From Geobacter sulfurreducens PCA (lineage in GTDB: Bacteria > Desulfobacterota > Desulfuromonadia > Geobacterales > Geobacteraceae), in the NCBI RefSeq assembly GCF_000007985.2, contig NC_002939.5, positions 720,001-752,000 on the forward strand: a stretch of 32,000 nucleotides of DNA, given 5' to 3'. Numbering within the stretch: position 1 is the first letter of the stretch; every line of letters begins with the position of its first letter. This document shows, piece after piece, positions 2,318 through 32,000 of the stretch. The translations under genes and the position numbers were made by a program. A model generated the notes under the pieces. That model had not been told where the DNA came from and did no database searches. It saw nothing but the letters and a program-made list of their open reading frames with translations.

Positions 2318-2401
2318 TGAACGGCAATTCCTTTCACATGTATGTCTGTTTCGTCTTGGTCGGGGCAGGAGGAATGCCCCTCCTTCCCTCCAGGTGCCGG
2401 A

Positions 2402-4315: not shown

Positions 4316-4366
4316 GCGTAACCTCCCGGCCGAGGGCAAAGGGAATCCTTAGCCTTCGGCCTCAGT

Positions 4367-5353
4367 TCACCGGGCATACCCGTTGGCGCGGAACCACTCC
4401 ACGGCCCTGCGCAGGGCATCCACGGCGGGACGGCGTTGGAGCCCCAGCTCCCCCGTCGCCTTGGACGATTCGAAGAACATGAATTTTTTGGCCATCTGCA
4501 CCCCTGCCAACGGGATGAGCGGCTCTTTTCCCGTAAGCTTGGCCAGTGCCTCGTTCACGTAAGCGGCCATGAGAATCGGGGTATGGGGGAGCCGCACCCT
4601 GGGCGCCGGAATCCCCGTGAGCCTGGCCAACAGGGCGAAGATCTCCCGCAGGGTCAGGTTCTCGTGCCCCAGGATGTACTTTTCACCGATCCGGCCGTGC
4701 CGTGCCGCCAGCAGGTGTCCCCGGGCACAGTCCTCCACATCGATGATATTGAGGCCGGTGTCCAGGTAGGCGGGCATCTTCCGGTTAAGGAAGTCGACGA
4801 TGATCTTGCCCGTGGGAGTCGGCTTCACGTCGTGGGGGCCCACCGGCGTGGAGGGATTTACGATCACCAGCGGGAGACCCCGGGCGATGAACGCCTCCGC
4901 TTCCCGCTCGGCCAGGAACTTGCTTTTTTTGTAGTGACCGACCATGTCGGCGAAGGTGACCGGCGTCGTCTCGGTTCCGGGGGTGCCGTTGCCGGGATTG
5001 CCGAGGGTGCCTACGCTGCTGGTGTAGACCACCCTGGCGATGCCGCGCCGCAGGGCCGCCTCCAGGATGTTGCGGGTGCCGTCCACGTTGGCCGCATACA
5101 TTGCCGCCGGCGTGCGGGTCCAGAGTCGGTAGTCGGCGGCGGCGTGGTAAAGAACCTCGCAGCCGGCAAGGCCGTGCTCCAGCGCCTGCCGATCCCGGAG
5201 ATCCCCTTCGCAGATCTCCACGTCCAGCCCCGCGAGGTTCCGACGGTCGGAGCCCGGGCGGGCAAGCACCCGCACGTGGCAGCCGTCCTTCAGCAATTCC
5301 CGGACGATGCTCGCCCCTATAAAACCGGTCGCGCCGGTGACAAAAACCTTCAT
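4367..5353 (-). CDS. hpnA: NAD-dependent epimerase/dehydratase, hopanoid-associated HpnA-like
   Basis: 328 aa. N-terminal Rossmann motif VTGATGFIGASIV and extended-SDR YxxxK (YKKSK). It lies between shc and dxs-hpnH on the same strand. A GAAGG RBS precedes the ATG. Confidence 0.75.
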   Translation of the reverse strand: MKVFVTGATGFIGASIVRELLKDGCHVRVLARPGSDRRNLAGLDVEICEGDLRDRQALEHGLAGCEVLYHAAADYRLWTRTPAAMYAANVDGTRNILEAALRRGIARVVYTSSVGTLGNPGNGTPGTETTPVTFADMVGHYKKSKFLAEREAEAFIARGLPLVIVNPSTPVGPHDVKPTPTGKIIVDFLNRKMPAYLDTGLNIIDVEDCARGHLLAARHGRIGEKYILGHENLTLREIFALLARLTGIPAPRVRLPHTPILMAAYVNEALAKLTGKEPLIPLAGVQMAKKFMFFESSKATGELGLQRRPAVDALRRAVEWFRANGYAR

Positions 5354-5371
5354 AGTGCCTTCAAAACTGAT

Positions 5372-5399
5372 GTAGGGGCGGTTGGTGAACCGCCCCTAC
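5372..5399 (-). promoter_or_regulatory. Intercistronic stem-loop between shc and hpnA (attenuator, partial terminator or mRNA-stabilising hairpin)
   Basis: Perfect 12-bp stem gtaggggcggtt / aaccgcccctac with a 4-nt loop. On the transcribed (minus) strand it is followed by ATCAGTTTTGAAGG, which contains the hpnA RBS. Confidence 0.45.
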
Positions 5400-5426
5400 G
5401 CGTAATCCACTTACTTGTCGAGGCTG

Positions 5427-7466: not shown

Positions 7467-7694
7467 CTCGGCTCTGCTCCTTGGACAATGCATCTGAATA
7501 TCGGCCCGCCAACCGTGGGCAGCCAACAGCAATCGGTGTTTAATATCACAGATTTAACAAAAAAGACACCGTTTTCAATGGTTACTGACCTCCCTGCAAC
7601 GGCTGCCGCCGCTCCAGAGCTGCGGCACGAGACGATTGCACCCATCGGGGGGGCTATGGTATCGTGCCAAGGTTTTGACGTGTGGGGAGGATTC
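7467..7694. promoter_or_regulatory. Divergent shc / hpnN intergenic promoter region
   Basis: 228-bp non-coding gap between divergently oriented genes, with an AT-rich core (tttaatatcacagatttaacaaaaaagaca). No specific promoter boxes could be assigned with confidence. Confidence 0.4.
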
Positions 7695-10968: not shown

Positions 10969-11334
10969 TTACCCTCCGGCCCGCTTGACGATGAATCCCC
11001 GCCGCGTGAGCTCGGCTACCAGAAGGTCGGCGTGATCGCCCTGGATCTCCACGACCCCCTCCTTCACCGTGCCGCCGGTGCCGCAGCGGCGCTTGAGCTC
11101 ACCGGCAAGCTCCCTGACCCCCGCCTCGTTCAGGGGGACTCCCGTGATCACGGTTACCGTCTTGCCGCCCCGCCCTTTTGTTTCGCGCCTGACCCGCACA
11201 ATGCCGTCTCCGGCCGGGGCCGCGCCCTTTTCCCGGCAGGAACAGGATGCAACCGGCTTGCCGCAGCCGGAACAGATTCGACCGTGTTCCGACGACCAGA
11301 CAAGGGTGGCGCCGGACGAGCTTTTCCCTTTCAT
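10969..11334 (-). CDS. yciH: SUI1-family translation initiation factor-like protein YciH
   Basis: 121 aa from the ATG at 11334, preceded by a GGAAGGA RBS. SUI1 domain signature: VRVRRETKGRGGKTVTVITGV...LAGELKRRCGTGGTVKEGVVEIQGDH. The longer 203-aa ORF is an artefactual extension in another gene's region. Confidence 0.85.
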   Translation of the reverse strand: MKGKSSSGATLVWSSEHGRICSGCGKPVASCSCREKGAAPAGDGIVRVRRETKGRGGKTVTVITGVPLNEAGVRELAGELKRRCGTGGTVKEGVVEIQGDHADLLVAELTRRGFIVKRAGG

Positions 11335-11564
11335 TGTTCCTTCCCCCCCGAAAAGCGCCGGCCCAGGTCCCGGCCCGCCTTGAAGCCCAGCAGCGCCAGG
11401 GGCCAGGCATGCCAGAGCAGATCGAAGATGTCGATGGGACGCGTCAGGGTCCCGGCCGACAGCATCCGGAACTTTTCGACCAGGTGAGGCTCCGGCACGA
11501 AGGGGGCCATGCCCAGGATCAGGGCGAGAGGAATCAGGACAGGGTACGTCATCAGGTGTTTCAT
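11331..11564 (-). CDS. Small hydrophobic protein (77 aa), unknown function
   Basis: GAAGAGG RBS 7 nt before the ATG. Hydrophobic N-terminus (YPVLIPLALILGMAPFV) and a second hydrophobic stretch (LLWHAWPLALLGF). Its stop overlaps the yciH start in an ATGA junction (11331-11334). Confidence 0.55.
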   Translation of the reverse strand: MKHLMTYPVLIPLALILGMAPFVPEPHLVEKFRMLSAGTLTRPIDIFDLLWHAWPLALLGFKAGRDLGRRFSGGKEQ

Positions 11565-11598
11565 GGATTGACCTCTTCATGTGGTGTTGCGGCCCGGT

Positions 11599-12519
11599 TC
11601 AGACGGCCGGCACGGGAATTCCCCGGTCAACGAGGAACCGGATCACTTCGTCCAGCCGGGGCGCTCCCCGCTGGGCACCCAGGTGAAGGCATGAAAGGGC
11701 CGCCGCGGCCGAGGCGAAGATCACCGTCTCCCGCAACGGCCACCCCTTGAGGAGCCCGAACAGATAGCCCCCGTGAAAGACATCCCCGGCACCCGTGGTG
11801 TCCAGGGTCGTTACGGGAAACGCCGGCACGTGGCAGGTCGTTCCGTCGTGCCGGGTGAGGCTCCCCCTGTCGCCCAAGGTAACGGTGACTGTCGGTGCGC
11901 CGAGGCCGTCGGCAAGCCGTGCGAACTGCTCCTCGGAACCGTCCCAGCCCAAGTCGAGGAAGAACTGCTCCGCCGCCACCAGGTAATCGCAGAGTTTCGC
12001 GAGCTCCCGCATCCCAGGACGCATCCGGCCCGCGTCCACCATGACCGGGATTCCCCGGCGCCGGGCCTCCCGGACCCCATGGAGGGACGCCTCTTCCATG
12101 AGCCCGTCCAGGTGGAGGAAGGCGCTGCCGGACCAGAACGGCTCCTCAAGTTCCGCAGGGGCCAGGTGGGCGCCGGTGGGGCGCTGCCAGACGATGGTCC
12201 GCCGCCCGCCGGTCCGTTCGACCATGATGAAGGCCCGCTGGGAGGCGGCTCCCGGCCGGGTGAGCAGATGGGTCACGTCAATTCCTTCCGCGTGGAGCGC
12301 ATGGCGGATCAGCGCGCCCGCGGCATCGTCCCCCACCACACCGGCAAAGCGGCACTGCAGGCCGAGTCTCGCCACAGTCACCAGTGCCGTGGCCGCCGGC
12401 CCTCCTCCCTGCTCCACCCATTGTCCCGATTCTGCTTTGCTGTCGGGCGAGGGATACTCCTCCACCTCAGCCAGCGTGTCCCAGCAGCACTGTCCCAGTC
12501 CCGTCACAACCATCGTCAC
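11599..12519 (-). CDS. PfkB-family carbohydrate kinase (ribokinase-like)
   Basis: 306 aa with the C-terminal PfkB signature DTTGAGDVFHGGYLFG and ribokinase-like length. Substrate not assignable from sequence. Confidence 0.85.
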   Translation of the reverse strand: MTMVVTGLGQCCWDTLAEVEEYPSPDSKAESGQWVEQGGGPAATALVTVARLGLQCRFAGVVGDDAAGALIRHALHAEGIDVTHLLTRPGAASQRAFIMVERTGGRRTIVWQRPTGAHLAPAELEEPFWSGSAFLHLDGLMEEASLHGVREARRRGIPVMVDAGRMRPGMRELAKLCDYLVAAEQFFLDLGWDGSEEQFARLADGLGAPTVTVTLGDRGSLTRHDGTTCHVPAFPVTTLDTTGAGDVFHGGYLFGLLKGWPLRETVIFASAAAALSCLHLGAQRGAPRLDEVIRFLVDRGIPVPAV

Positions 12520-12561
12520 GTCTCCGTGTGCATCTGCTCGTAAAGGTTTATTAAAAAACCA

Positions 12562-12582
12562 GTAAACATTAAAATTGTTTAC
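12562..12582. promoter_or_regulatory. Palindromic candidate operator GTAAACA-N7-TGTTTAC
   Basis: Perfect 7-bp inverted arms (12562-12568 and 12576-12582) in the AT-rich divergent intergenic region between the pfkB operon and the histidine kinase gene. A related GTTACATTTG follows about 20 bp downstream. Confidence 0.35.
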
Positions 12583-12657
12583 ATTGTCGTCGCAATTCGG
12601 TTACATTTGCAAACTTATTCCATCCTGCCCTGATCAAATTCAAATCCGGAGCACTGA

Positions 12658-14466
12658 ATGAATTCCGACCGCCTCGCCTTGATCCTGGAAACCGCCACCG
12701 ACGGATTCTGGGATTGGGACCTGCGCGCTGACCGACTTTTCCTGAGTGAAGGCTACCGCACCCTGATCGGCTACTCATCCGACGAAACCTTTATTGACAG
12801 CGTCTTTATCGAGGCAATCGTCCATCCCGACGATCGGCCCGCGTGCGTGCCGGTCATCAGAGACCTCATGGATGGGAGCCGCATCTCGGCCACCCTTGAA
12901 TACCGTATCCTGCGGGGTGACGGCGCCACCGTCTGGGTCCAGGCGCGGGGGACCGCCGTGGACCATGATGACGCCGGTCGCCCGGCCCGGATGGTGGGGA
13001 CCATCTTCGATATAACCGCACGCAAGCGGAACGAGGAACAACTCGTCCTGATGGGGGCGGTGGTCGATGATGCCACCGATGAAATCTTCTGGGCGGACCG
13101 CCAGGGGCGCCTGGTGTATGTCAACCGGGCGGCCTGCGAGAACCTCGGTTATTCCCGCGAAGAGCTCCTCTCCATGACCGTCAGCGACGTGGATCCCCTG
13201 GTCCCCTCCGACCGCTGGCCCGTCATGTGGGAAACGGTGCGGCTCCAGGGTGGGTTCGTTATGGACTCGGTCCACCGGACCCGGGACGGCCGCGACATCC
13301 CCAAGGAGATTTCCGTCAGGTATGCGAGCATCGGTGGGCGGGAGATCGTCTACGGCTTTGCCCGTGATATCAGCGAGCGGAAACGGGTGGAAGAAGCCCT
13401 GCGCACCAGTGAGCACCGGCTGCGGCTCATGGTGGAGCATCTGCCTGCAGGCGCCGCCCACCGGGAGGGTGACCGGCTCCTGGTCAACCGGGCAGTGGAA
13501 GAGATAACCGGTTACCGGCGCCATGAACTGGACACCCTCGACAAGTGGTTTTCTACCATCTACGGCGAGCAGGCCGCAGAGGTCCGCGCCGTCTACGAGG
13601 CGGATCGCGCGGCGGGGATGCGCGTCCCCCGCATCATGCCCGTCAGGCGCAAGGACGGCACGATCCGCCACCTGGAGTTCTTCGGTTACCAGTACGAATC
13701 GGGCGAGGTCTGGCTCCTGCACGACGTCACCGACCGTCGGGCCGTCGAGGAGGAAATCCGGCGGCTGAATGCCGACCTGGAAGCGCGGGTCCGGGAGCGC
13801 ACCGCCGACCTGGAGTCGTTCTGTCACTCGGTCTCCCATGACCTGCGGGCACCCCTGCGGCACATCGCCGGCTATGCACGGATGCTCCAGGAGGACTACC
13901 GGGACCGTCTCGATGACACCGGCCGCCACTGCCTGTCGCGCATCGGCCGGGCGGCGGTCAATATGGGTGAGCTGGTGGACGGGCTCCTGAGTCTGTCTCA
14001 CATCTCACGGGAGGACATTGAGCGCCGTAATGTCAGCCTGAGCTCCATTGCGCGCTCGGTGGGCCGCGAATTGTCCGAACGGGAGCCGGACCGCAAGGTG
14101 GAACTCGAGGTTGCCGACGGGATCAACGGTTGCGGTGACCCGCGCCTGCTCAGGATACTGTTCGAAAACCTCCTGGGCAATGCCTGGAAGTTTACTGCAC
14201 GTGTCGAGCGGCCCAAGGTCGAGTTCCGCATGGAGTCCCGCGATGGCAAAAATGTGTATGTCGTCCGCGACAACGGCGTTGGCTTCGATATGCGCTATGT
14301 TCACAAGCTCTTCGGTTCCTTCGAGCGGCTCCACGGCCCCGAGGAATTCTCCGGCCCAGGCATGGGGCTGGCCATTGTCCGCCGGATCGTGGAACGCCAC
14401 GGCGGCACGGTCCGGGCCGAGAGCGAGATCGGACGGGGGGCCGCGTTCTCCTTCACTCTCGGCTGA
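12658..14466 (+). CDS. Multi-PAS sensor histidine kinase
   Basis: 602 aa with a GGAG RBS 7 nt upstream. About three PAS/PAC modules, then the HisKA H-box FCHSVSHDLRAPLRHI and the HATPase_c N/G boxes (NLLGNAWKF, VRDNGVGF, GPGMGLAIV). Confidence 0.9.
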   Translation: MNSDRLALILETATDGFWDWDLRADRLFLSEGYRTLIGYSSDETFIDSVFIEAIVHPDDRPACVPVIRDLMDGSRISATLEYRILRGDGATVWVQARGTAVDHDDAGRPARMVGTIFDITARKRNEEQLVLMGAVVDDATDEIFWADRQGRLVYVNRAACENLGYSREELLSMTVSDVDPLVPSDRWPVMWETVRLQGGFVMDSVHRTRDGRDIPKEISVRYASIGGREIVYGFARDISERKRVEEALRTSEHRLRLMVEHLPAGAAHREGDRLLVNRAVEEITGYRRHELDTLDKWFSTIYGEQAAEVRAVYEADRAAGMRVPRIMPVRRKDGTIRHLEFFGYQYESGEVWLLHDVTDRRAVEEEIRRLNADLEARVRERTADLESFCHSVSHDLRAPLRHIAGYARMLQEDYRDRLDDTGRHCLSRIGRAAVNMGELVDGLLSLSHISREDIERRNVSLSSIARSVGRELSEREPDRKVELEVADGINGCGDPRLLRILFENLLGNAWKFTARVERPKVEFRMESRDGKNVYVVRDNGVGFDMRYVHKLFGSFERLHGPEEFSGPGMGLAIVRRIVERHGGTVRAESEIGRGAAFSFTLG

Positions 14467-20218: not shown

Positions 20219-21330
20219 ACGAAGCGACGCGTCAACGGCTTCTCGGGGCACTCAGGTCGCTGGTCACGGCCATTTCCGGCGCCGCCCTCTACGCGGCCCG
20301 GCATCCCCGCGTCATCCTGCTGCGTTCCGAGGCGTTCACAGAGCTGTCGGCCGCCCTTGAGGCGGACGAGGCCCTGTCGCTGGTGGTCATCGATGGCGAG
20401 ATACTGGTGGAGGGCACGCCGCTTGACGGAGGGCTGTTTCTGCAACGCCTCGCGGGAATGCTCACGTCCCGGGGGATCGGGCACCTCAAGTTCCTGCGCG
20501 GCGTGACGGAAGAGGAGCTGGCGGCCCTGGCATCGATTCTCGCTGGGTCGGGAACGGCGGGTGGCGAGTTCCATTCGTCACCCCACGTGCGGTTCGGCCG
20601 GGTGGAGGTCCGCTATTCCGGGGGCACGGACGGCACCGGACACGCCTCGGGCCTGCCCGCCATGGAGATCGGCCGTTTTATGGAGCTGTACCAAGGGGTC
20701 GCCCGCCACCGGCGCAGCCATGTGACCGGCCTGGCCGATCTGGTGGCGGGCTTCATCACCGCCCTGCGCGAGCAGGCCAGTCCGCTGGCGGCCCTGGCCC
20801 CTTTGCGGGACGTTGACGAATATACATTCACCCACTCGGTGAACGTCTGTGTCCTCAATCTGGCCCAGGCCATGGCCCTGGGCATCGACGGGCCTCTCCT
20901 GCAGGAAATAGGCATTGCCGGCATGCTTCACGACATCGGCAAGATGTTCGTTCCCCCCGAGATACTCACCAAGCCGGGCCAGCTGGATGATGACGAATGG
21001 GCCGTCATGCGCCGCCATCCCCTCATGGGAGCCCGCTGTCTGGCTGAAACCCCCGGCGTGCCGCGGCTCGCAGTGGTTGCCACCTTCGAGCACCATCTAA
21101 AGCACGATCTCTCCGGCTATCCGTCCGTTGCCGCCGGCTGGCGCCAGAGTCTCTGCAGCGAGATGACGACCCTTTCGGACTTTTTCGATGCCCTGCGCAC
21201 CCGGCGCGCCTACCGCGACTCCATGGAACTCCGTCAGATAGCCGGCATCCTGCTGGAGAAGCGGGGCCGGGATTTCCATCCCCTCCTCACCCGCAATTTT
21301 CTGCTGGTCTTGAGCCGGCTTGCCGCCTAA
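20215..21330 (+). CDS. HD-GYP domain cyclic-dinucleotide phosphodiesterase
   Basis: 371 aa. HD motif GMLHDIGK, followed by HHLKHDLSGYP (the HHExxDGxGYP-type signature). A non-catalytic N-terminal domain of about 110 aa. Confidence 0.9.
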   Translation: MNEATRQRLLGALRSLVTAISGAALYAARHPRVILLRSEAFTELSAALEADEALSLVVIDGEILVEGTPLDGGLFLQRLAGMLTSRGIGHLKFLRGVTEEELAALASILAGSGTAGGEFHSSPHVRFGRVEVRYSGGTDGTGHASGLPAMEIGRFMELYQGVARHRRSHVTGLADLVAGFITALREQASPLAALAPLRDVDEYTFTHSVNVCVLNLAQAMALGIDGPLLQEIGIAGMLHDIGKMFVPPEILTKPGQLDDDEWAVMRRHPLMGARCLAETPGVPRLAVVATFEHHLKHDLSGYPSVAAGWRQSLCSEMTTLSDFFDALRTRRAYRDSMELRQIAGILLEKRGRDFHPLLTRNFLLVLSRLAA

Positions 21331-23240
21331 TCCCCCACCTTCAGCAGCGCCATACAGATGTCGTCGCCGGACGGCACTCCCCCCGTGAACATCCGCAGTC
21401 GTGTCAGAATGGCGTCGAGGAGTTCTTCCGGTTCGCGTCCGCTTTCCTCCTCCATGGCCCGGGCGAGCCTGGCCGTGCCGAAGAATTCCCCGTCCGCGCC
21501 GGTCGCCTCGGTGATGCCGTCGGTGTAGAGCAGAAGGATGTCTCCGGCGGCCATGGTGACTTCGTTCTGCTCATACTCCACGAGGGGATTGACGCCGAGG
21601 ATCAGCCCCTCCGCGTCAATCTGGCGGCATTCCCCCCGGCGGCGGCAGACCAGGGGAGGGCTGTGTCCGGCGCTGGCAAAGGCCAGAGTGTGGGTGGCGG
21701 GGGAGTAGGAGGCATAGAAGAGGGTTATGATGAGCTCCGCCCGGGACAGGTCTTCATGGAGCAGTGCATTGAGCGAACCGACGATCTGAGCGGGTGTTCC
21801 CCCCGCGTGGACCAGGGAGCGGATGACGCTCCGCAGTTCGGTCATGATAAGAGCCGCGCCGACGCTGTGGCCGGACACGTCAGCGATGACCAGGTCGAGT
21901 GAGCCGTCCTCCCGGGGGAAGAAATCGTAGTAATCGCCCCCCACGTGGGCGGCCGGCACCCAGCGCCCCGCGCACCGGCAACCCGGCACGGGCGGAGGCG
22001 TCTCCGGCAGCAGCGATCGCTGGATCTGGCGGGCCAGCTGCATGTCGCAGGCGAGCCGGGCATTCTCCAACAGCGCTTCCTGGGCCTGTTTCCGCTCGGC
22101 AATGTCCTGCTTGATGGCAATGAAGCAGCGGATGGCCCCGCGTTCGTCCCGCACCGGCGTGATGGTCTGCTCTTCCGGGTAGAGGGAGCCGTCCCGGCGC
22201 CGGTTGATCATCTCGCCGTGCCAGACCGTACCCGAGCGAATGGTGTGCCACAGATTGCGGTAGAACTCCTTACCGTGCACGCCGGAGTTGAGGATACCGA
22301 TGCCGCGGCCCGCCACCTCGTCCAGCAGGTAGCCGGTCAGGCGGGTGAAGGCGGGGTTGGCCCAGATTATCCTCCCCTCCGGGGCGCAGATGACGATGGC
22401 GTTGGCCGCCGCCTTCAGGGCCACGGTCTGAATCTGGCGGGTCAGTTCTCCTTCCTTGCGCTCGGTGATGTCGGCGATGAGTCCGTCGTAGGCCGTGAGC
22501 CGGCCCGTGTCGTCCCAGGTTGGGACGATGGTATTGCGCACCCAGCGGGTTTCACCGTCCTTGCGGACGATCCGGTGCTCGAGGGTCACCACCCCCTTCT
22601 TTGCCTCCAGCCGGGCGATGCTGGCCAGCACCCGGTCCCGGTCTTCGCCGTGGATCATCTCGTACCAGAGGGTGGGGCGGGTATTGTATTCGTCGCTCGT
22701 GTAGCCGGTCACGGGCAGGCACCCCTGGCCGTGGGAGGTGCGGATCACGTGCCCTTCCGCCAATTCCACGGTGTAGGTGTAGTTGGACACGGCGGCCACC
22801 AGCCGCCGGTACCGTTCCTCGCTCCGGGCCAGGGCCTGTTCGGCCTCCCGGCGCTTGCGGCGCACTTCCGCCTCCTGCAGTTCGCGGGCGATGGCAGGCA
22901 CCAGCCGGGAGGTGCTTCCCTTGATGAGGTAGTCGTTGGCGCCCGCCTTCATGGCGGCCACCGCCGTTTCCTCGCCGATTTTGCCCGACACCACGATGAA
23001 CGGCAGATCCTCCTCCCGCTCCCGCCAGAGCCGCAGCGCGTCCATGCCGCTGAAGCGGGGGAGGACGTAGTCCGAGAGGGCCAGATCCCAGTCCCGCGCC
23101 GCCATGGCCGCAACCATCTCGGCGGCGGTCTCCACCCGCACATGATCAGGCTCGTATCCCCCCTTGCGGAGTTCCCGCAGCACCAACAGCATGTCGTCTT
23201 CGGAGTCTTCGATGATCAGAACGCGGAGTGGAATGCCCAT
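21327..23240 (-). CDS. Response regulator with REC, two PAS domains and a PP2C/SpoIIE phosphatase domain
   Basis: 637 aa from the ATG at 23240, with an AGGAGG RBS 7 nt upstream. REC motifs LIIEDSEDD...LALSDYVLP...; PAS/PAC modules; SpoIIE motifs GGDYYDFF, VIADVSGHS, LLLYTDGITEA. Confidence 0.9.
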   Translation of the reverse strand: MGIPLRVLIIEDSEDDMLLVLRELRKGGYEPDHVRVETAAEMVAAMAARDWDLALSDYVLPRFSGMDALRLWREREEDLPFIVVSGKIGEETAVAAMKAGANDYLIKGSTSRLVPAIARELQEAEVRRKRREAEQALARSEERYRRLVAAVSNYTYTVELAEGHVIRTSHGQGCLPVTGYTSDEYNTRPTLWYEMIHGEDRDRVLASIARLEAKKGVVTLEHRIVRKDGETRWVRNTIVPTWDDTGRLTAYDGLIADITERKEGELTRQIQTVALKAAANAIVICAPEGRIIWANPAFTRLTGYLLDEVAGRGIGILNSGVHGKEFYRNLWHTIRSGTVWHGEMINRRRDGSLYPEEQTITPVRDERGAIRCFIAIKQDIAERKQAQEALLENARLACDMQLARQIQRSLLPETPPPVPGCRCAGRWVPAAHVGGDYYDFFPREDGSLDLVIADVSGHSVGAALIMTELRSVIRSLVHAGGTPAQIVGSLNALLHEDLSRAELIITLFYASYSPATHTLAFASAGHSPPLVCRRRGECRQIDAEGLILGVNPLVEYEQNEVTMAAGDILLLYTDGITEATGADGEFFGTARLARAMEEESGREPEELLDAILTRLRMFTGGVPSGDDICMALLKVGD

Positions 23241-23434
23241 GGCGTGCCTCCTGGTGCCCTGTCCCGGAGATAACGTCCCGGTTTCATAGTGTACTACGGG
23301 TTGCAGGTGGGGCAAGAAGGAGGCGTCGACGGGCGAAAAAAATCAGTGCCTCCACAAATGCGTTCAAGAAAATTTCCGTTATGCCGAAAAGAGTTACATG
23401 AGTTGAGACTATGTTATTGGCACTGGAGAACATC

Positions 23435-24718
23435 ATGAAATCATTGCAGGCGGGGTGTGTATCTGCGGTACTGGCGGCCATCTGTATTGCGACGCCGGCC
23501 GGGGCCTTCCATTCGGGCGGTGCGGCCCAGTGCGAGGGGTGCCACACCATGCACAATACAAGCGAAGGCGCCGCCATGACCGGGTCGAGCGCCCGCTTTC
23601 AGAGCGGCCCGTTTCTTCTCAGAGGATCGGACCAGAGCTCAGCCTGCCTCAACTGCCATCAGCAGGCCGGAGACACCGGTCCCACCTCGTATCATGTTTC
23701 CACTGCCGAAAATGACATGCCCGTGGGGTCGCCGCCGTTGCAGCTCACCCCCGGCGGCGATTTCGGCTGGCTGAAAAAATCCTATTCCTGGGCTCCCGCG
23801 CCGGGCTCAGCCTCGGTGGAGATTCGCGGCGAACAGCATGGTCACAACATTGTCGCCGCCGACTTTAACTATGTGGCAGACACCACAAATATCAACGCTC
23901 CGGGAAGCTCCACTCCCTATCCGTCCGACAGCCTCCACTGTTCCAGCTGCCACGATCCGCACGGCGCGTACCGCATTGTGGAGAACGGGGTTCAGGCCAC
24001 GAGCGGCAAGCCGATCAGGGGGGCCGGCTCCTACGGCTCCCTCCCCGACGCAGGTTCCGCCGTGGGTACGTATCGACTCCTGGCGGGGGTCGGCTACAAA
24101 CCCAAGTCCCTGGCCGGCGGCCCGGCCTTTACCCACGCAGCGCCTTTTGCGGTGGCGCCCGTCGTCTACAACCGGTCCGAAGAATCCAGCGACACCCGCG
24201 TTTCCTACGGCAAGGGGACTTCTGCCTGGTGCACCAACTGCCATGCCCTCATGCATTCTGCCCCCGGTTCTTCGCTTCACCCGGCCGACAAACAGCTCGG
24301 CGACGTGGCCCAGACCTACAATGCCTACCGCAAGACGGGCAGCCTGGACGGCACTGTGGCTACGGCCTATCTGTCGCTTGTCCCGTTTGAGCTGGGGGAT
24401 GTGACCGACCTGACGGCCCTCAAGGATGCAATCGCCACCACCGCCGGTCCGGCCGCAACGGACAAGGTGTCGTGTCTTTCCTGCCACCGTGCCCACGCCT
24501 CCGGCTTCAGCCATATGACGCGGTTCGCCATCGACTCCAACCACATTACCGTGGCCGATGCCTCCGGCAATGCCATCTGGCCCGATCCGGTCATGAACCC
24601 CTCCCAGGCCCAGGGCCGGACCGTGGCCGAGACCCGGCAGGCATACTACGGGAGGCATCCGCAGGCGTTTTCTCCCTACCAGCGCGTGCTCTGCAACAAG
24701 TGCCACGCCAGGGACTGA
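23435..24718 (+). CDS. omcJ: OmcS-family hexahaem c-type cytochrome (OmcS paralogue, probably OmcJ)
   Basis: 427 aa from the ATG at 23435, with a GGAG RBS 6 nt upstream. Signal peptide ...ATPAGA|FHSGG. Six CXXCH motifs (CEGCH, CLNCH, CSSCH, CTNCH, CLSCH, CNKCH). It is collinear with OmcS as I remember it (FHSGG..CEGCHTMHN, CLNCHQ.AGDTGP.SYH.ST, TPGGDFGW.KK, GHNIVA.D.NYVADTT, LHCSSCHDPHG, CLSCHRAHASGF, PYQR.LCNKCHA.D). The gene symbol rests on my recollection of the G. sulfurreducens locus. Confidence 0.9.
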   Translation: MKSLQAGCVSAVLAAICIATPAGAFHSGGAAQCEGCHTMHNTSEGAAMTGSSARFQSGPFLLRGSDQSSACLNCHQQAGDTGPTSYHVSTAENDMPVGSPPLQLTPGGDFGWLKKSYSWAPAPGSASVEIRGEQHGHNIVAADFNYVADTTNINAPGSSTPYPSDSLHCSSCHDPHGAYRIVENGVQATSGKPIRGAGSYGSLPDAGSAVGTYRLLAGVGYKPKSLAGGPAFTHAAPFAVAPVVYNRSEESSDTRVSYGKGTSAWCTNCHALMHSAPGSSLHPADKQLGDVAQTYNAYRKTGSLDGTVATAYLSLVPFELGDVTDLTALKDAIATTAGPAATDKVSCLSCHRAHASGFSHMTRFAIDSNHITVADASGNAIWPDPVMNPSQAQGRTVAETRQAYYGRHPQAFSPYQRVLCNKCHARD

Positions 24719-24767
24719 TATCGAGTGTCCGCACCACTCTGAGAAAAGCGAAAACAGTGGCTTGAAA

Positions 24768-24797
24768 GGGCCGGCCAGCAATGGTCGGCCCTTTTTT
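24768..24797 (+). terminator. Rho-independent terminator after the OmcS-family gene
   Basis: GC-rich stem gggccggcc / ggtcggccc (one G-U pair), a 6-nt loop, then TTTTTT (24792-24797), about 50 nt after the stop codon. Confidence 0.8.
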
Positions 24798-25199
24798 GCC
24801 GCTGATGCACGTCCGGAAGTGCTCGCCCCCCCTCGCTCAACCACCTTCCCGAAACCTCCGCTCCTTCGTACCCGCTGAAAACACAAGGAAATAAACAAAA
24901 GCAGTGCAATTAAGGGGAGATGGATATTAAACTGCATCACCTGCGGTTACTTTGTATTTATTAAATTTTTGTCACATATTGGTATTCAATTTGCTGCTTT
25001 ATGAATAGCTTTGATGGGTACGTGGGGTGTTGGCAATGGGTGCATAGTGAAACTGATTGATTTCATTGTGAACTGTTGTTTTCGGAAGGCTGTTGCCAAT
25101 CGGTATTATGTCGTGATTTTGACTTTTGGTGCGTCGAGTGTCGGTTATTTAACGTAATACTCACATGGTATCACTGTGGTTGTGGGTAGTGAGGTTACT
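24798..25199 (+). promoter_or_regulatory. AT-rich promoter/leader region of the giant cytochrome gene
   Basis: A non-coding gap of about 400 bp. By my count 24941-25000 is 17/60 G+C, in a window that is otherwise GC-rich. It contains a spaced repeat TGTTGGCAATGG (25028-25039) / TGTTGCCAATCGG (25091-25103). A GAGG RBS at 25191-25194 precedes the GTG at 25200. Confidence 0.5.
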
Positions 25200-28100
25200 G
25201 TGAATACGCGATCTTGGAAAATGCTGATGATGTGGTGCTCCGTGATGTTTGTGGGTATTTCGCCGGTCCTGACCGGCGTGGACGAAGTCCGGGCAGCCAT
25301 CCAGTGCTATCAGTGCCACGGAACCGCGGCAACCAGTGACTATCGCCCGGAAGACAGCGCGTTCCGCGCTATCTCCACCGGAGGATTCAAGGGAAATCAC
25401 CGGACTCACATGGCAAGCAGCGCCACGGCAAACAGCTGCACGATCTGCCACGGCACGAGCGGCTACCAGGCAAGCCATCGCGACGGTACCATTGCCATAG
25501 CTTCCAACATTAATGCGTCACCGGCCGTCGGAACCTACAGTCGCGGCACGTCCTTCGCCCAGAGCGCCTCGGTGGTGCCGGGTACCTGCAGCAACGTCAA
25601 CTGCCACTTTGAAACCGTGACGCCGGCCTGGGGCAGCACGCCCCTTGCCTCCACCGCCGATTGCGGTACGTGCCATGGCAGCGCGCCGGCCACCGGCAGC
25701 CATCCCGTCGGGGGGAGCAAGCACGGCGCCTATTACGGGACCGGAACCTCTTCGTGTGGCACATGCCATCCCGACCATGGGGCCAAGGAGGGTACAGCCC
25801 GTTTTGCCCATGCCACCAGTGTCGGTCGGGACTTGCAGGTCAGCTTCGCTGCCGCGCCGAACAGCGGCAGCGGCAGCTATTCCGGGCCGGTAAACGATTA
25901 CCTGCCGAGTCAGAGCAATGTCTTCGGCACCTGTTCCGGCACATACTGTCACAGCCCCGGCACCAAGTCGTCGGCATTCGACGCCCCGAACCAGTCCGCA
26001 GCCTGGGGGGGGAGCCTGGCCTGCAACGGATGCCACAAGTCCGACCGTTCCTCGGGCACGGCCATGACCAGCGGCAGCCACCGCGCCCATGTGGACGGCT
26101 TTGGGCTGGGCTATGCCACGGTCAGGTGCGTCAGGTGTCACGGTGCCACCGTAACCTCGGCCATGGCCATCGGCACCTACGGCAATCATGTTAACAAGCT
26201 GGTCAACGTGGCGTTCGACAGCACCACCACGGCGAAGAACGGCACGTACGGCGGGGTGTCGTCTCCCATGACCAAAGCGCCGGGGAGTGCCTACGGCAGC
26301 TGCACCAACGTCTACTGCCACTCCAGCGGCCAGGGGAACAGCGGCAGCTGGCCGCCGACCTATACGACTCCCACCTGGGGCTCCGCCGCAACGGGGCAGT
26401 GCGGCACCTGCCACGGCATCAACGGCGATACCCACAGCGGTTACGGCACACCGACCATCATGACTTCGGGCAGCCACACCAGGCACCTGGCCTATTCCTT
26501 CGGTATTACCAGCGACGAAACCCGCTGCGCGACCTGCCACGCCACCACCCTGACCGGATTCACCCCCACGGTCTGCAGCTCCTCGGTCTGTCATAACCAG
26601 ATCAGCCAGAAGCACGCCAATTATGAAGTCAATGTGGGATTCCCCGACTACTACGGCGCCACCGCTGCCTACGGCGGCACACCGAAGCCGGGTGACGGCT
26701 ACGGCTCGTGCACGAATATCTACTGTCACAGCGATGGCCGGGACACCCTCCACTACGCCCAGACCCCCCTGACTTGGGGCGGCGCGTCCCTGGGCTGCAC
26801 CGGCTGCCACGGGAGTGCCACGGCGCCTCAAAACGGCAGCGGCGGCACCACCCTGTCGGGCAAGCATGCCGTCCACGTGAATAATGCGGCGATCTTCGGC
26901 ACCAATAACAGCCTGGGGTGCGTCCAGTGCCACAACAGAACCGTCAGCGACAACAGTACGCTCCTTGGGACCACCGGCACCCAGTACCATGTCAACAAGA
27001 CCCGCGACTACTATGGGACCATGGCCGGCAGCTACAACTCCGGCACCAAGGTCTGCAGTAACGTGTACTGCCACAGTTCGGGCCAGGCCACACCGGTCTA
27101 CCGGACCGTGGCCGCCTGGACCAGCGCCACCGGCTACGGCTGCAACAGTTGCCACGGGGCCGACAGCGCCTTCACGGCAGCGGCCGGCGAGCCCAACTAT
27201 GCCAACGGCGGCGCCGGAACGGCCACGGCCAACAGTCACCAGCGCCACGTAGCAAGCCTCGGCATTACTGCCACCACCGGCTGCGCCGCCTGCCACTGCC
27301 GGACCGTTGACGCAACCGTTACCAACAAGCTGCGTAACTACTCGACCCTGCACCTGAACCAGGCGCGCAACGTGGCCATGAAGGCCATCAACGGCAAGTC
27401 CGGAACCTACGACAGCAATGCCAAGACGTGTTCGGCCACCTACTGTCACGGCACCTCACCGTCACCGGCCTGGGGCGGATCTACCGCCTGCAACTCGTGT
27501 CACAGCGCCCGGGCCACCGATGCCCACTGGGCAGCCAACTCCGCCCATAAGATCCACTGGGAGGGATCCGTCCTGCCCTCTTCGTATGCCATGACCCCGG
27601 GCAATGGCACCGGCGATGCGGCCACCTACCGGTTTGCCTGCTCGTCCTGCCATTCCCCCTCCGGAGGCTCAGCCCATGCCGGCGGCGCCTTGGCGGCAAG
27701 CCAGGCGGCCCAGGTCTATTTCGGTTACTCCGCGGCAGGCGTGCGCGGCAGCTACACGGGAACCGGCACGGCCTACAGCAATGACAACGGATTCAACTGG
27801 ACCGCCGGATCCTCCGGCTGTACCGCCACGTACTGTCACTCCGGCGGCGCCGGTCAGGCCGGTCGTTCGGCCGTTGCCTGGAGCACCAGCGCCAAAACCT
27901 CCTACAACTGCAACCTGTGCCACGGTAATGCCGCTGCACCCAACAACGACTGGCGGCGTGGCGCCCCCCTCTATGCCTCCGGCTCCATCACCTACAAGGG
28001 CCAGGCGAAGGGGAACGCCCATGGTGCTCACATAAGCGCACAGACCAGCCTCTCTGCCGTCTACATGCAGTGCGCCCACTGTCACGGAGCCACGACCGCC

Positions 28101-30926
28101 ACAAGCACCGCCATCAGCGACAAGCGCAAGCACCTGAACAAATCCTACGATGTCTCCGCCGGCGGCACCTTCCGGGACGGGGACAACACCGCCAACTCGA
28201 CGGCGGTCACTATCGCTTACAGCTACAACGTTGCAGGGAGCAGCTGCTCCAACGTCTCCTGCCATCCGGTGGGCCTCGACGTGACCACCACGCCGTCCAC
28301 GCCGCTGACGCGGTCCACCAGCACGGCTGCGTGGAACAGCTCCTACAAATGCACCGACTGCCACCGCATCCCGATGCAGGATACCGATACCTACCATCAT
28401 GCCATGTATGACTACGGCCGGACGTATCCGACCACAATCCCCGACGGCAGCGCCACCAGCGGCACCAATTACACCAGCCGGACCTGCACCATGTGCCATG
28501 TGGACCACACGATCTTCAGCCCCGATCTCAACGTCAACAGTGCCGGCCGGTCCTACAACCTGAGGACCGCCATCGGCTCAACGCCCACCACGACGGCAAA
28601 CTTCACCAATTCCGACTACAGCGCATCCGGCGGCGGTATCTGCATCAGCTGCCATTCCACGGAGCGAACCAAATCCACGGTACGGCGCAAACAGGAAACC
28701 AACGCCACCAAAACACCGCCTGTCACCTTGGCCAACTACTCCGGTTCCGCCCATCAGTACAATGTGCCGGCCAGCTTCTTCAGCGATGGCAGCCGGTTCC
28801 AGGGCAACTGCTCCAAGTGTCACAACGCCCTGGTCAACGAGACGTCGGTATTCATGAGCTATACCGGCTCCGGCGACTCGTTCGGCAATCACAACAGCGG
28901 CATCAGGCGGCTTCAGGGCTCCCTCGGCGCAACAGGCGGCGAGGTGGCTGAAGAGCAGATCTGCTACCGTTGCCATAGCCTGTCCAGCGATGCCGACCCG
29001 GGGGGCGGCCCGCCCAAGGCGGTCGCCAACAAGGATTACTACGGGGTGGCACCCATGAGCCTGGCGTCCCAGGACATCTTTGCTGCCAACCGTGACTTCC
29101 GGGCCGCGAACCCGACGTACAGCCTCACCAACAAGCTGTATTTCAAGCCGGCCGCGGCCGAGACACCTGCTGAGGCCATGCCGAATCAGCACAACACCGG
29201 CGATTCCTTCAGCGGCGGCACGTGGGTCGGCCGCGTCATGTCCCCCTGGGAGACCACGGTTACCTATGAAACAAAGAGCCAGGGCACCAACCTGGAGGGC
29301 ACCAGCTACTGGCGCATGGTCACCTTTACCTCGCCCGCGGTCTACAGCACCACTACCGTCCCCGCCGGCAACTGGATCATCAACCTCTACTGCCGCGAGT
29401 CGTCCACCGCCCAGAACGCCAGGGTCAGGTACATGGTCTACAAGTGGAACAACCCCGCCGATACCATGGGAGCCACCATCATCGCCAAGGGGACCTATGC
29501 CACCGAGCTTTCCACTGCGGGAGCCCCCGGTACCGTACGCCAGATACCGGTGAGCGTGGGTACCCTCACCCTCAACGCGGGGGAGAAGATCGTGGTCGAT
29601 CTTTCGCTGGAGACGACCACCACGAGCACCAACGGCTATACCGCGTCATTTTACTTCGGCAGCCGCGCACCCAGCGAGCTGACGCTCCCCGGCAGCGTGG
29701 CCTGGACCTACGCCGACCCGGGCGCCCCAGGTTACGGCCACGCAACCCAGCACTATTCAGGGATCCATCTCCCCTCGCGTCAGAATGAAACCCTGGCCTA
29801 TATCGCCCAAAACAGGCACATCGAGTGCGTGGACTGCCACAACCCCCATGCGACCCGCAACGGGCTCCACGGCGACTACGGAATCGCCACCGGCGGAAGT
29901 TCCACCACCCTGGTCAACAGCAACAAGAACTGGGTGCCCAACCAGTGGGTCGGCGATTATATCAACATCATTTCAGGCACCGGCGCCGGCCAGACGGCCA
30001 CCATCAGCGGCAATAACGCGACCACCGTTACCGTGGCCGGGTGGACTGCGCCGGCCAGCGGCAGCGTTTACCGGATCATCGCCAACAATAATGCGGTGTC
30101 CCGGAGCCAGCGCGGCGTGTCCGGCGCCAGTGTAAGCTATTCCGGGGCCTGGACCAACGGCACCTATACCATGGTAAGCGAGGCCGCCTACGAGTACCAG
30201 ATCTGCTTCAAGTGCCATGCCGCCACCAATCCGACCACCAATACGCTACGCTACTGGAACGTAACCTCGCCGTCGTTGGGGGCGGCCCGTTGGACCAACA
30301 TCGGCCTGGAGTTCAACCCCAACAATGCCTCATACCACCCGGTGATCCAGCCATTGCCATCCACCGGCAACCGGCGGCTGCAGGCGACCGCCCTGACCGG
30401 CGGCTGGCAGCCGGGCGAGGTGATGACCTGCTCCGACTGCCACGGCAGGGATACCAGCACCTCCGCCACGGCCCAGGGCCCCCATGGTTCGACCGTCAAA
30501 TGGCTGCTGACGGGCATGTATCAGAACTGGCCCTTCACTTCAGCGGCGGCCAACGGTACCTCATCCGGCGGGACCCTGCTGACCGGAACGGGCACCGCGA
30601 CGCCTCCGGCCAACAACTTCTGCTTCAACTGCCACACCTGGGCCGCCGGCGGCAACGGTCACGTCAAGTCGTCGGGCGGGCACAGCAGGCCCTGCGTCAA
30701 CTGCCACATTCGGGTTCCCCACGGGGGCAAGGTGCCGCGCCTCCTGACCGGGGCCAATGCCCCATCCCGTTACAAGCCCGACGGCAACGGCGGCGCCTTT
30801 TCCGGTTCCTACCTGACCAGCGCCATCCTGCCGGCCAGCGGCTATATGGGGGCCAACAATGTCAGCTGTTCCTCCATCTGTGGGGCAAGGCACACGGACA
30901 ACAGCATAAAGGCCTATTCCTGGTGA
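25200..30926 (+). CDS. Giant secreted multihaem c-type cytochrome (26 CXXCH + 9 CX4CH motifs)
   Basis: 1,908 aa from the GTG at 25200, with a GAGG RBS 5 nt upstream. The listed 25176 start adds 8 aa. Signal peptide: NTRSWKMLMMWCSVMFVGISPVLTGVDEVRA|A. Motifs were counted by hand in the translation. The repeated CxxxxCH...W...CXXCH unit is the Geobacter-type domain (TIGR01904, as I recall). Confidence 0.9.
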   Translation: MNTRSWKMLMMWCSVMFVGISPVLTGVDEVRAAIQCYQCHGTAATSDYRPEDSAFRAISTGGFKGNHRTHMASSATANSCTICHGTSGYQASHRDGTIAIASNINASPAVGTYSRGTSFAQSASVVPGTCSNVNCHFETVTPAWGSTPLASTADCGTCHGSAPATGSHPVGGSKHGAYYGTGTSSCGTCHPDHGAKEGTARFAHATSVGRDLQVSFAAAPNSGSGSYSGPVNDYLPSQSNVFGTCSGTYCHSPGTKSSAFDAPNQSAAWGGSLACNGCHKSDRSSGTAMTSGSHRAHVDGFGLGYATVRCVRCHGATVTSAMAIGTYGNHVNKLVNVAFDSTTTAKNGTYGGVSSPMTKAPGSAYGSCTNVYCHSSGQGNSGSWPPTYTTPTWGSAATGQCGTCHGINGDTHSGYGTPTIMTSGSHTRHLAYSFGITSDETRCATCHATTLTGFTPTVCSSSVCHNQISQKHANYEVNVGFPDYYGATAAYGGTPKPGDGYGSCTNIYCHSDGRDTLHYAQTPLTWGGASLGCTGCHGSATAPQNGSGGTTLSGKHAVHVNNAAIFGTNNSLGCVQCHNRTVSDNSTLLGTTGTQYHVNKTRDYYGTMAGSYNSGTKVCSNVYCHSSGQATPVYRTVAAWTSATGYGCNSCHGADSAFTAAAGEPNYANGGAGTATANSHQRHVASLGITATTGCAACHCRTVDATVTNKLRNYSTLHLNQARNVAMKAINGKSGTYDSNAKTCSATYCHGTSPSPAWGGSTACNSCHSARATDAHWAANSAHKIHWEGSVLPSSYAMTPGNGTGDAATYRFACSSCHSPSGGSAHAGGALAASQAAQVYFGYSAAGVRGSYTGTGTAYSNDNGFNWTAGSSGCTATYCHSGGAGQAGRSAVAWSTSAKTSYNCNLCHGNAAAPNNDWRRGAPLYASGSITYKGQAKGNAHGAHISAQTSLSAVYMQCAHCHGATTATSTAISDKRKHLNKSYDVSAGGTFRDGDNTANSTAVTIAYSYNVAGSSCSNVSCHPVGLDVTTTPSTPLTRSTSTAAWNSSYKCTDCHRIPMQDTDTYHHAMYDYGRTYPTTIPDGSATSGTNYTSRTCTMCHVDHTIFSPDLNVNSAGRSYNLRTAIGSTPTTTANFTNSDYSASGGGICISCHSTERTKSTVRRKQETNATKTPPVTLANYSGSAHQYNVPASFFSDGSRFQGNCSKCHNALVNETSVFMSYTGSGDSFGNHNSGIRRLQGSLGATGGEVAEEQICYRCHSLSSDADPGGGPPKAVANKDYYGVAPMSLASQDIFAANRDFRAANPTYSLTNKLYFKPAAAETPAEAMPNQHNTGDSFSGGTWVGRVMSPWETTVTYETKSQGTNLEGTSYWRMVTFTSPAVYSTTTVPAGNWIINLYCRESSTAQNARVRYMVYKWNNPADTMGATIIAKGTYATELSTAGAPGTVRQIPVSVGTLTLNAGEKIVVDLSLETTTTSTNGYTASFYFGSRAPSELTLPGSVAWTYADPGAPGYGHATQHYSGIHLPSRQNETLAYIAQNRHIECVDCHNPHATRNGLHGDYGIATGGSSTTLVNSNKNWVPNQWVGDYINIISGTGAGQTATISGNNATTVTVAGWTAPASGSVYRIIANNNAVSRSQRGVSGASVSYSGAWTNGTYTMVSEAAYEYQICFKCHAATNPTTNTLRYWNVTSPSLGAARWTNIGLEFNPNNASYHPVIQPLPSTGNRRLQATALTGGWQPGEVMTCSDCHGRDTSTSATAQGPHGSTVKWLLTGMYQNWPFTSAAANGTSSGGTLLTGTGTATPPANNFCFNCHTWAAGGNGHVKSSGGHSRPCVNCHIRVPHGGKVPRLLTGANAPSRYKPDGNGGAFSGSYLTSAILPASGYMGANNVSCSSICGARHTDNSIKAYSW
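25587..28364 (+). repeat. Eight tandem, diverged protein-level modules (CX4CH - W - CXXCH - CXXCH) inside the giant cytochrome
   Basis: The first Cys of the CX4CH motifs falls at ORF residues 138, 253, 376, 512, 627, 752, 882 and 1024, a period of 115-142 aa. Each motif (C[ST]x[VT]xCH) is followed 13-28 aa later by W-[GTSN] and a CxxCH. In seven of the eight modules a second CXXCH follows the first by 21-50 aa (the eighth has only CTDCH). One extra CX4CH (CSSSVCH) is at 467. Confidence 0.8.
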
Positions 30927-31540
30927 TGGGGTACGGGTACGGTGGATATCCCGACCGGGCGATGCCCGGGGGAGGCGGGAGGAGTGCCGGCACCTCCGGG
31001 GGGGTGCGTGTCGGCATGATCCTGCTGGCGGTTGTGCTGGCAGTTTGCTCTGCCTGCGCCGGGGGCGATACCGGCGAGGTCGAGGCGACCATTCGCCGCT
31101 ACAATGACCTGCTGGTCCAGGGCTACCGGGCCCAGAACATGAATCCCCTCGTGGAAGTCACCACCCATGAGCACGCGCTGAAACTCTATCACCACATGGC
31201 CGCCCTCGGCGAGGGCCAGCTGCGGATGGAGTCGAAGCTCAAGAGGATCAGGTTCCTGAATATCGAACGGCGCGGCAATTCCGAGGCGACGGTGGAAACG
31301 GAGGAAACCTGGGACTTCACCCATTACCGGATGGCCACTAACGAAAAATACGCCGAGGAAAAAGACTTCATTTACCGGATGGGGTATGTCCTGAACAAAG
31401 AAAACGGCCGCTGGCTCATCACCGGGGTGAACACCATCAGCGGCACCAGCACCAATAACGTGGTCCCCTGGCCGGTGCTGGACCGCAAGGGGAGGGTCGT
31501 CAATCAGGCGCCCGGCGGCGCCCAGGGACGGCACCCCTGA
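30926..31540 (+). CDS. Membrane-anchored or lipoprotein-like protein of unknown function
   Basis: Same frame as listed ORF 30212..31540. A candidate ATG at 30926 overlaps the cytochrome stop (TGATG). Alternative starts are ATG 30962, GTG 31004 and ATG 31016. One hydrophobic segment (MILLAVVLAVCSACAGG), then a soluble domain of about 160 aa with alternating alpha/beta character (NTF2-like guess only). Confidence 0.6.
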   Translation: MGYGYGGYPDRAMPGGGGRSAGTSGGVRVGMILLAVVLAVCSACAGGDTGEVEATIRRYNDLLVQGYRAQNMNPLVEVTTHEHALKLYHHMAALGEGQLRMESKLKRIRFLNIERRGNSEATVETEETWDFTHYRMATNEKYAEEKDFIYRMGYVLNKENGRWLITGVNTISGTSTNNVVPWPVLDRKGRVVNQAPGGAQGRHP

Positions 31541-31542
31541 CC

Positions 31543-32000
31543 ATGGAGCGGATCAAGCGGTTTTTCCTGGCACGCGGCACGGTCATCAGTTTCATTCTCC
31601 TGGCACTCTGTGCCATCACCCTGGCAGCGTTCATTCCCCAGCGCTTCCTGACCTCGCCCGAAGAGATGCTGGCGTGGCAGTCGGCCTACCCGCTGTTCGC
31701 CCGCTGGAGTAGCCTGCTGGGCCTCCATCACATCTATACACATCCCGGCTTTGCCCTTATCCTTGCCGGGGGGACGATTTCCCTTGCCTTTTCGACCAGG
31801 AATCAGGCGCTTACCGCGTGGCAGCGCACCGTGCGCCCCGCCGGCGGTACAGCCGGGGACCGGCGCTTTTCCGTCGCCCGAGCGCCGGCGGAGGTTTCCC
31901 GCCTCCTGATGACCAACGGGTTCATCGGTCAGGGCATATTCGATGGGGAAATCCGGCTGGTGCGCCACCCCTGGGGGTACTGGGGCAATACTCTGCTCCA
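31543..32000 (+). CDS. resB: ResB/Ccs1 (CcsB)-type System II cytochrome c biogenesis protein, N-terminal part (runs off the window)
   Basis: Not in the ORF track because no stop is reached. My translation from the ATG at 31543 gives MERIKRFFLARGTVISFILLALCAITLAAFIPQRF...LLGLHHIYTHPGFALILAGGTISLAFS...LVRHPWGYWGNTLL. The TM1-IPQ motif, the LGL..IY..P.F TM2 motif and the HPWGYWG motif match my memory of the ResB family. It starts 2 nt after the upstream stop. Confidence 0.8.
   Translation, partial: MERIKRFFLARGTVISFILLALCAITLAAFIPQRFLTSPEEMLAWQSAYPLFARWSSLLGLHHIYTHPGFALILAGGTISLAFSTRNQALTAWQRTVRPAGGTAGDRRFSVARAPAEVSRLLMTNGFIGQGIFDGEIRLVRHPWGYWGNTLL

Follow-up and report, generated by a model that had tools for sequence, protein, structure and literature searches.

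Which relatives of the filament-forming cytochrome OmcS also form wires is an open question in the field (mBio 2026, PMC12977616). This question is raised again by a gene in the 32,000-nucleotide (nt) stretch of DNA analyzed here (hereafter, the window), which encodes a hexahaem cytochrome resembling OmcS. The first-pass annotation of the window, made from the letters alone, had assigned the protein to the OmcS family and had proposed that it may polymerise, since it keeps the histidine with which one OmcS subunit ligates a haem of its neighbour (His16 of the mature protein). We identify the gene, with near certainty, as omcJ (GSU0701) of Geobacter sulfurreducens. Alignment and structure prediction show OmcJ as a putative Sec-exported hexahaem cytochrome with a predicted OmcS fold and the full complement of haem ligands. 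Its polymerisation is plausible on family grounds, and micrometre-long wires in vivo are unproven. The literature already contains the gene under this name, counts it among the OmcS relatives, gives its function as unknown and asks which of these relatives form wires. The more useful result is the family-level survey presented below, in which His16-retaining members and natural variants are positive and negative candidates for His16 as a determinant of polymerisation. OmcJ is a good test case for the question because it belongs to a tractable model organism, is encoded away from the osc genes, shows, according to the literature, a phenotype with Fe(III) oxides and contains a complete ligand set.

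Similarity of OmcJ to OmcS and Its Haem Ligands

A phmmer search against all PDB sequences aligned residues 25-427 of the query with residues 1-407 of the OmcS chain (E 1.1e-141), and OmcS (6EF8/6NEF) was the sole PDB sequence match at E <= 0.01. The open reading frame (ORF) on the plus strand contains six CXXCH motifs that are collinear with those of OmcS, in agreement with the first-pass annotation. In mature OmcS (GSU2504), these motifs begin at positions 9, 47, 140, 239, 328 and 400; the corresponding positions in OmcJ are given in Table 1. Both proteins belong to the same length class, carry a Sec signal peptide and have a mature sequence starting with FHSGG. The identity of the window protein was 59.7% to OmcS of strain PCA, 63.9% to OmcT and 52.0% to the GSU2501-type protein.

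The haem ligands were analyzed using an alignment of 221 full-length family members obtained in two database searches. It included mature OmcS (6EF8) as well as OmcS, OmcT and GSU2501-type proteins translated from the locus L001 of G. sulfurreducens subsp. ethanolicus. A second alignment contained 108 more diverse sequences of the family. It was found that exactly 12 histidine columns were invariant or near-invariant among the 221 members, namely the six CXXCH histidines and six others (positions 2, 13, 16, 51, 110, 144, 147, 243, 257, 332, 335 and 404 in OmcS numbering). The window protein has histidine in all 12 columns (mature positions 2, 13, 16, 51, 113, 149, 152, 246, 258, 327, 330 and 400), and the same set of 12 was recovered in the diverse alignment. 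Their invariance, together with the published count of 12 His ligands, allows us to assume that these residues are the axial ligands.

In OmcS, a subunit supplies 11 of the 12 axial histidines itself, and the neighbouring subunit provides the remaining one, which ligates haem 5 (Filman 2019, PMC6584659). Two reviews agree that one axial histidine is supplied by the neighbour (PMC12307469, PMC12954529), so the mechanism that the first-pass annotation had given for OmcS is borne out. The counterpart in the window protein was read directly as a CAC codon at mature position 16, where it had been placed. That the trans-ligating histidine of OmcS itself carries the number 16 is our assumption, in line with the logic of the alignment.

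The mature protein was modeled with AlphaFold2 on the basis of the 108-sequence alignment, and the model had a mean predicted local distance difference test score (pLDDT) of 91.3 and a predicted template modeling score of 0.90. A Foldseek search of the PDB with this model returned 6EF8_A (E 1.7e-48, template modeling score 0.93) and no other significant match. Thus, OmcJ is predicted to have the OmcS fold. The only poorly defined part of the model was the first 40 residues, that is, the arm bearing haem 1 and His16 (pLDDT 44-67). In a control monomer model of OmcS (P0029), the equivalent arm had a pLDDT of 53-80 vs at least 90 elsewhere. As a weak hint from haem-free monomer predictions, the low confidence of the arm may fit packing against a second subunit instead of its own.

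In a comparison with the same OmcS sequence (P0029), identity was 75% for residues 1-20, 85% for residues 321-340 and 70% for residues 381-400, about 57% overall, and 35-55% in the regions outside the haem segments. OmcJ also differs from OmcS in small indels at mature positions ~101-103, 134-135, 252-254 and 301-320. A neighbour-joining tree placed the protein and a 95% identical relative (P0001) on a long branch of their own in a broad radiation on the OmcT side. Orthology with OmcS was considered and rejected, as the OmcS clade does not include the protein and the locus is unlike the omcS-omcT-osc arrangement. Judging by its clade and its separate locus, which has neither omcT nor osc genes beside it, the gene is a paralogue of OmcS.

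The nearest named relative of OmcJ is OmcT (GSU2503), which has the same 12 histidines and the same arm and whose function is likewise unknown. However, omcT is located immediately 3' of omcS in the omcS/osc operon, whereas omcJ is isolated and monocistronic. The GSU2501/OscC-type protein belongs to the same family and keeps His16 and the other histidines, but it diverged earlier, and its gene is invariably found with the eight-gene osc block (PMC12977616). OmcE (GSU0618) nanowires resemble those of OmcS in that one haem is ligated by a histidine of the adjacent subunit (PMC12307469, PMC12954529); OmcE differs in containing four haems rather than six and has no sequence or fold homology to the OmcS family.

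Conservation of His16 in the OmcS Family

His16 was present in 216 of the 218 members that cover this column in the larger alignment and in 105 of the 108 diverse sequences. Both OmcT and the GSU2501/OscC-type protein retain it. Because it is retained in ~97-99% of the family, His16 cannot single out a wire-former. On this comparison, it is a family-wide feature necessary for the OmcS mechanism and not a discriminator of wire-forming members. The proposal that OmcJ may polymerise was therefore upheld in part: the ligand set, the arm and the predicted fold are like those of OmcS, but the presence of His16 distinguishes OmcJ from almost nothing in its family.

Three metagenomic members of the family (P0132, P0135 and P0169) were found to lack His16 while keeping the other 11 conserved histidines. 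At this site, they read CDGCHGSL.., CEGCHAFG.. and CTRCHALI... These proteins could be natural examples of members that do not polymerise or that have another sixth ligand on haem 5. The near-universal presence of His16 suggests that ligation in trans could be ancestral to the whole OmcS family.

OmcS-family genes with 39-56% identity were also found beyond Geobacteraceae, namely in Nitrospirota metagenome-assembled genomes (L005, titled Nitrospira japonica, and L006) and in Anaeromyxobacter sp. PSR-1 (L008). The family splits into more than 4,246 clusters when grouped at 90% identity and into 619 when grouped at 50%.

Identification of the Locus, Selection and Expression

Positions 20932-32000 of the window were syntenic with the genome of G. 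sulfurreducens YM18 (AP017912.1, 730,007-750,621; L016), with a DNA identity of 96.4%. The gene order in YM18 is an HD-domain protein, a response-regulator/PAS/PP2C protein (minus strand), a 435-aa (amino acid) hexahaem protein, a 1899-aa giant cytochrome, a 204-aa protein, ResB, CcsA and an MFS protein (minus strand). In the literature, GSU0701 is omcJ, a hexahaem OmcS relative encoded "elsewhere" than the omcS operon, GSU0702 is described as a 35-haem cytochrome, and GSU0704-GSU0705 are described as a ResB/ResC pair for cytochrome biogenesis. The identification as omcJ was made because the order of hexahaem protein, 35-haem giant, small protein, ResB and CcsA, seen in the window, L010 and L016, matches the published GSU0701-GSU0705.

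The hexahaem protein of YM18 is identical to the window protein at 430 of 435 residues, and the two genes differ by 28 single-nucleotide polymorphisms (SNPs) and five amino acid changes. A published table likewise gives 28 SNPs and five amino acid changes for omcJ in KN400/LT vs PCA. In addition, the exact window protein was found in 44 blocks of public assemblies, and several of these contigs were 100% identical to the window. The window allele is probably PCA-type.

The gene is under strong purifying selection. The ratio of nonsynonymous to synonymous substitution rates for omcJ was 0.068 vs YM18 and 0.081 vs L004, a relative with 84-88% DNA identity; for two neighbouring genes, the ratios were 0.13 and 0.17. 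Mature residues 1-22 were invariant among the window, YM18 and L004.

Deletion of omcJ reportedly impaired growth on insoluble, but not soluble, Fe(III) (Aklujkar 2013, as cited in another paper). Induction of omcJ has been described with hematite and magnetite and also with current generation, in the latter case by a source that notes low expression levels. The published data point to a role of omcJ with insoluble Fe(III).

Proposed Assembly of OmcJ and Alternative Explanations

In the proposed mechanism, eleven axial ligands of OmcJ would be given in cis, as in OmcS, and haem 5 (CLSCH, proximal His327) would have no cis partner. A second subunit would provide the sixth ligand of haem 5 through His16 of its N-terminal arm, and the same arm would bring haem 1 to stack on haem 6 of the partner. 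Such head-to-tail association could lead to dimers, oligomers or filaments. The partner may be OmcJ itself or OmcS/OmcT, which share the arm and the haem-5 pocket. As a head-to-tail dimer would still have an arm and a haem-5 site to spare, its geometry would favour open-ended growth. The Osc machinery, which is linked to omcS and encoded elsewhere, might serve OmcJ in trans, and the product would act as an outer-surface electron conduit to insoluble Fe(III) oxides.

We put the chances of OmcJ assembling via ligation in trans, in some form, at about even. It is a tentative and rather doubtful proposition that OmcJ is a fourth cytochrome nanowire of G. sulfurreducens or takes part obligately in OmcS-type wires as a co-polymer partner or nucleator, built through the His16-to-haem-5 linkage, served by Osc in trans and used specifically with insoluble Fe(III) oxides. 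In that case, the whole family, which reaches Nitrospirota and Anaeromyxobacter, would have inherited ligation in trans, and with it polymerisation, as an ancestral property.

Several observations weigh against the proposed assembly and against long wires in vivo. OmcS is the only member of the family known to polymerise, and no wire is known for OmcT or the GSU2501/OscC-type protein (mBio 2026, PMC12977616). No OmcJ filament was reported in the literature searched, and the PDB contains OmcS alone for this family. Untargeted cryo-electron microscopy (cryo-EM) of omcS and omcS/omcE deletion strains gave OmcE and OmcZ filaments, not those of OmcJ (PMC12954529), and the OmcS homologue of G. uraniireducens has been argued not to form long filaments. 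Retention of His16 does not predict extracellular wires, because OmcT and the OscC type, which is listed as periplasmic in the literature, keep it as well. Finally, no osc assembly genes were found in the window or in the 10 kb beyond it on extended contigs. The window contains genes for chemotaxis, hopanoid synthesis, a kinase, a glycosyltransferase and HEAT, HD and PP2C-regulator proteins. The osc cluster is encoded elsewhere in the species (locus L001), and at L001 and L021, the osc genes come after omcS and omcT, whereas omcJ is an isolated gene with a divergent regulator on one side and a terminator on the other.

Several of these observations also favour an explanation that we hold possible, though with little confidence, namely that OmcJ is a non-polymerising hexahaem cytochrome of the outer surface or periplasm, a monomer or at most a dimer, acting as a terminal Fe(III)-oxide reductase or a discrete electron carrier. 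The reason for keeping His16 would then be dimerisation, transient docking or the chemistry of haem 5, and only OmcS, with Osc linked in cis, would build long wires. It also agrees with the distance of omcJ from the osc cluster and with the fact that hidden Markov models separate OmcS from OmcT and OmcJ, which means that OmcS-specific signatures exist (PMC12977616). However, haem 5 would be left five-coordinate without a trans ligand, and His16 and the whole arm are tightly constrained. The free arm and free haem-5 site of a dimer would speak for further growth, and omcJ expression in the imaged strains may simply have been low.

It is improbable that OmcJ is a minor subunit co-assembling with OmcS/OmcT as a nucleator, cap or cell-proximal adaptor, with His16 given to or taken from an OmcS subunit. 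All three proteins occur in one species and have near-identical sequences in the arm (FHSGG..CEGCHTMHN) and in the haem-5 segment (CLSCHRAHASGF). Nevertheless, the OmcS maps were wholly explained by OmcS alone (PMC6584659), there is no evidence of co-regulation, and the identity outside the haem segments is as low as noted above.

A role of OmcJ as a dedicated redox partner of the adjacent 35-haem GSU0702 is very unlikely: the adjacency is kept in YM18 and the more distant L004 and both proteins are predicted to be extracellular, but a strong terminator and ~430 nt (to ATG 25227) separate the genes, another gene is inserted between them in L004, and in other taxa the giant's homologues are accompanied by the small protein, ResB and CcsA but by no OmcS-family neighbour. 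For the last two reasons, the adjacency is probably not functional.

Gene Structure and Neighbouring Genes

The coordinates of omcJ, its parts and the surrounding genes are given in Table 1.

Table 1. Features of omcJ and of other genes in the window.
Feature	Position	Strand	Description
omcJ-type coding sequence	23435..24718	+	427 aa plus stop; end-to-end match to OmcS 6EF8, E 1e-141
Shine-Dalgarno-like GGAGAA	23425..23430	+	5 nt 5' of ATG 23435; read off the sequence
Sec signal peptide (predicted)	23435..23506	+	24 aa, cleavage after AGA; residue 25 (F) = mature OmcS residue 1 in alignment
N-terminal arm	23507..23626	+	mature residues 1-40; holds haem-1 motif, His2 and His16
Haem-1 motif CEGCH	23531-23545	+	aa 33, mature 9
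Mature His16, codon CAC	23552-23554	+	aa 40; presumed in-trans ligand of the next subunit's haem 5
Haem-2 motif CLNCH	23645..23659	+	aa 71, mature 47
Haem-3 motif CSSCH	23939..23953	+	aa 169, mature 145
Haem-4 motif CTNCH	24230..24244	+	aa 266, mature 242
Haem-5 motif CLSCH	24473..24487	+	aa 347, mature 323; proximal His327 (mature)
Haem-6 motif CNKCH	24692..24706	+	aa 420, mature 396
Intrinsic terminator	24765..24797	+	AAA-GGGCCGGCC / loop AGCAAT / GGTCGGCCC-TTTTTT; RNAfold and sequence reading
Response-regulator/PAS/PP2C (SpoIIE) phosphatase	21327..23240	-	637 aa as called; ORF extends to 23315
Giant cytochrome	25176/25227..30926	+	1899 aa from ATG 25227 or 1916 aa from GTG 25176; GSU0702 orthologue
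Small protein	30926..31540	+	204 aa; 97% identical to YM18_0691 (hypothetical protein)
ResB	from ~31543, runs past window end	+	same order in YM18
HpnH-type radical SAM/DUF3463	1319-2317	-	
NAD-dependent epimerase	4367-5353	-	
Squalene-hopene cyclase	5427-7532	-	
MMPL/HpnN-like transporter	7488-10394	+	

An in-frame alternative start codon (ATG 23411) would give the 435-aa form that is chosen by gene callers. From ATG 23435, the signal peptide has the canonical sequence MKSLQAGCVSAVLAAICIATPAGA. The alignment of the 108 diverse members gave the family consensus ...AxA|FHxGG at the cleavage site, and the cleavage AGA|FHSGG and the mature N-terminus assigned in the first-pass annotation agree with the alignment to mature OmcS. 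The predicted mature protein consists of 403 residues and begins with FHSGGAAQCEGCHTMHN (FHSGGAAQCEGCHTMH in short form).

Downstream of omcJ, a stem-loop with a 9-bp G+C-rich stem (24768-24776/24783-24791), a 6-nt loop and a T6 run (24792-24797) was found, and RNAfold gave -37.6 kcal/mol for the 50 nt around it. The gene thus lies directly upstream of the giant cytochrome with a strong terminator between them, as annotated earlier. Because this terminator is located directly 3' of the hexahaem gene, the gene is considered monocistronic, and the giant cytochrome is a separate transcription unit. A sigma-54 promoter at TGGCAC 23418 was considered and rejected on reading the sequence, since no TTGC element follows and the site is only ~12 nt from the start codon. 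As cGAMP/GEMM elements control some Geobacter cytochromes, the whole window was compared with Rfam, and no known RNA or riboswitch matched at the gathering threshold.

The divergent neighbour of omcJ (21327-23240) has the domain order receiver-PAS-PAS-PP2C, with ~170-195 nt between its start and that of omcJ. By position, it is presumably GSU0700, and it is a possible regulator of omcJ.

The giant cytochrome contains 26 CXXCH and nine CX4CH motifs, that is, 35 haem sites. A tblastn search for a second OmcS-family gene in the window found none and gave just weak CXXCH-type matches inside the giant. One of them (E 0.024) aligned OmcS 137-217 with the C-terminal part of the giant (window 29817-30059) around a CxxCHxPH motif and is probably generic haem-site similarity. 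In the relative L004, the gene inserted between the omcJ-type gene and the giant (11093-12820) encodes a 575-aa PAP2/vanadium-chloroperoxidase-like protein.

On extended contigs, the genes of the window are followed by ResB, CcsA and MFS. The 35-haem giant of the GSU0702 type was always followed by ResB and CcsA (the window, L010, L016, L009, L019 and L020), and this linkage is kept in G. grbiciae and two metagenomic contigs. Ahead of the ResB-CcsA pair, the window, L019 and L020 have a lipoprotein-like gene of 187-204 aa; L009 instead has a 171-aa gene after the pair. ResB and CcsA would appear to be a system-II pair dedicated to haem attachment at the unusual CX4CH sites. It was suggested previously that such ResB/CcsA-type pairs serve nearby cytochromes (Aklujkar 2009). 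A context look-up for P0325 (G. pickeringii) returned no match.

Upstream, the window also contains a hopanoid biosynthesis cluster (1319-10394). The ORF 2342-4321 (plus strand) inside this region had no match in Pfam. The cluster is located ~13 kb or more upstream of omcJ.

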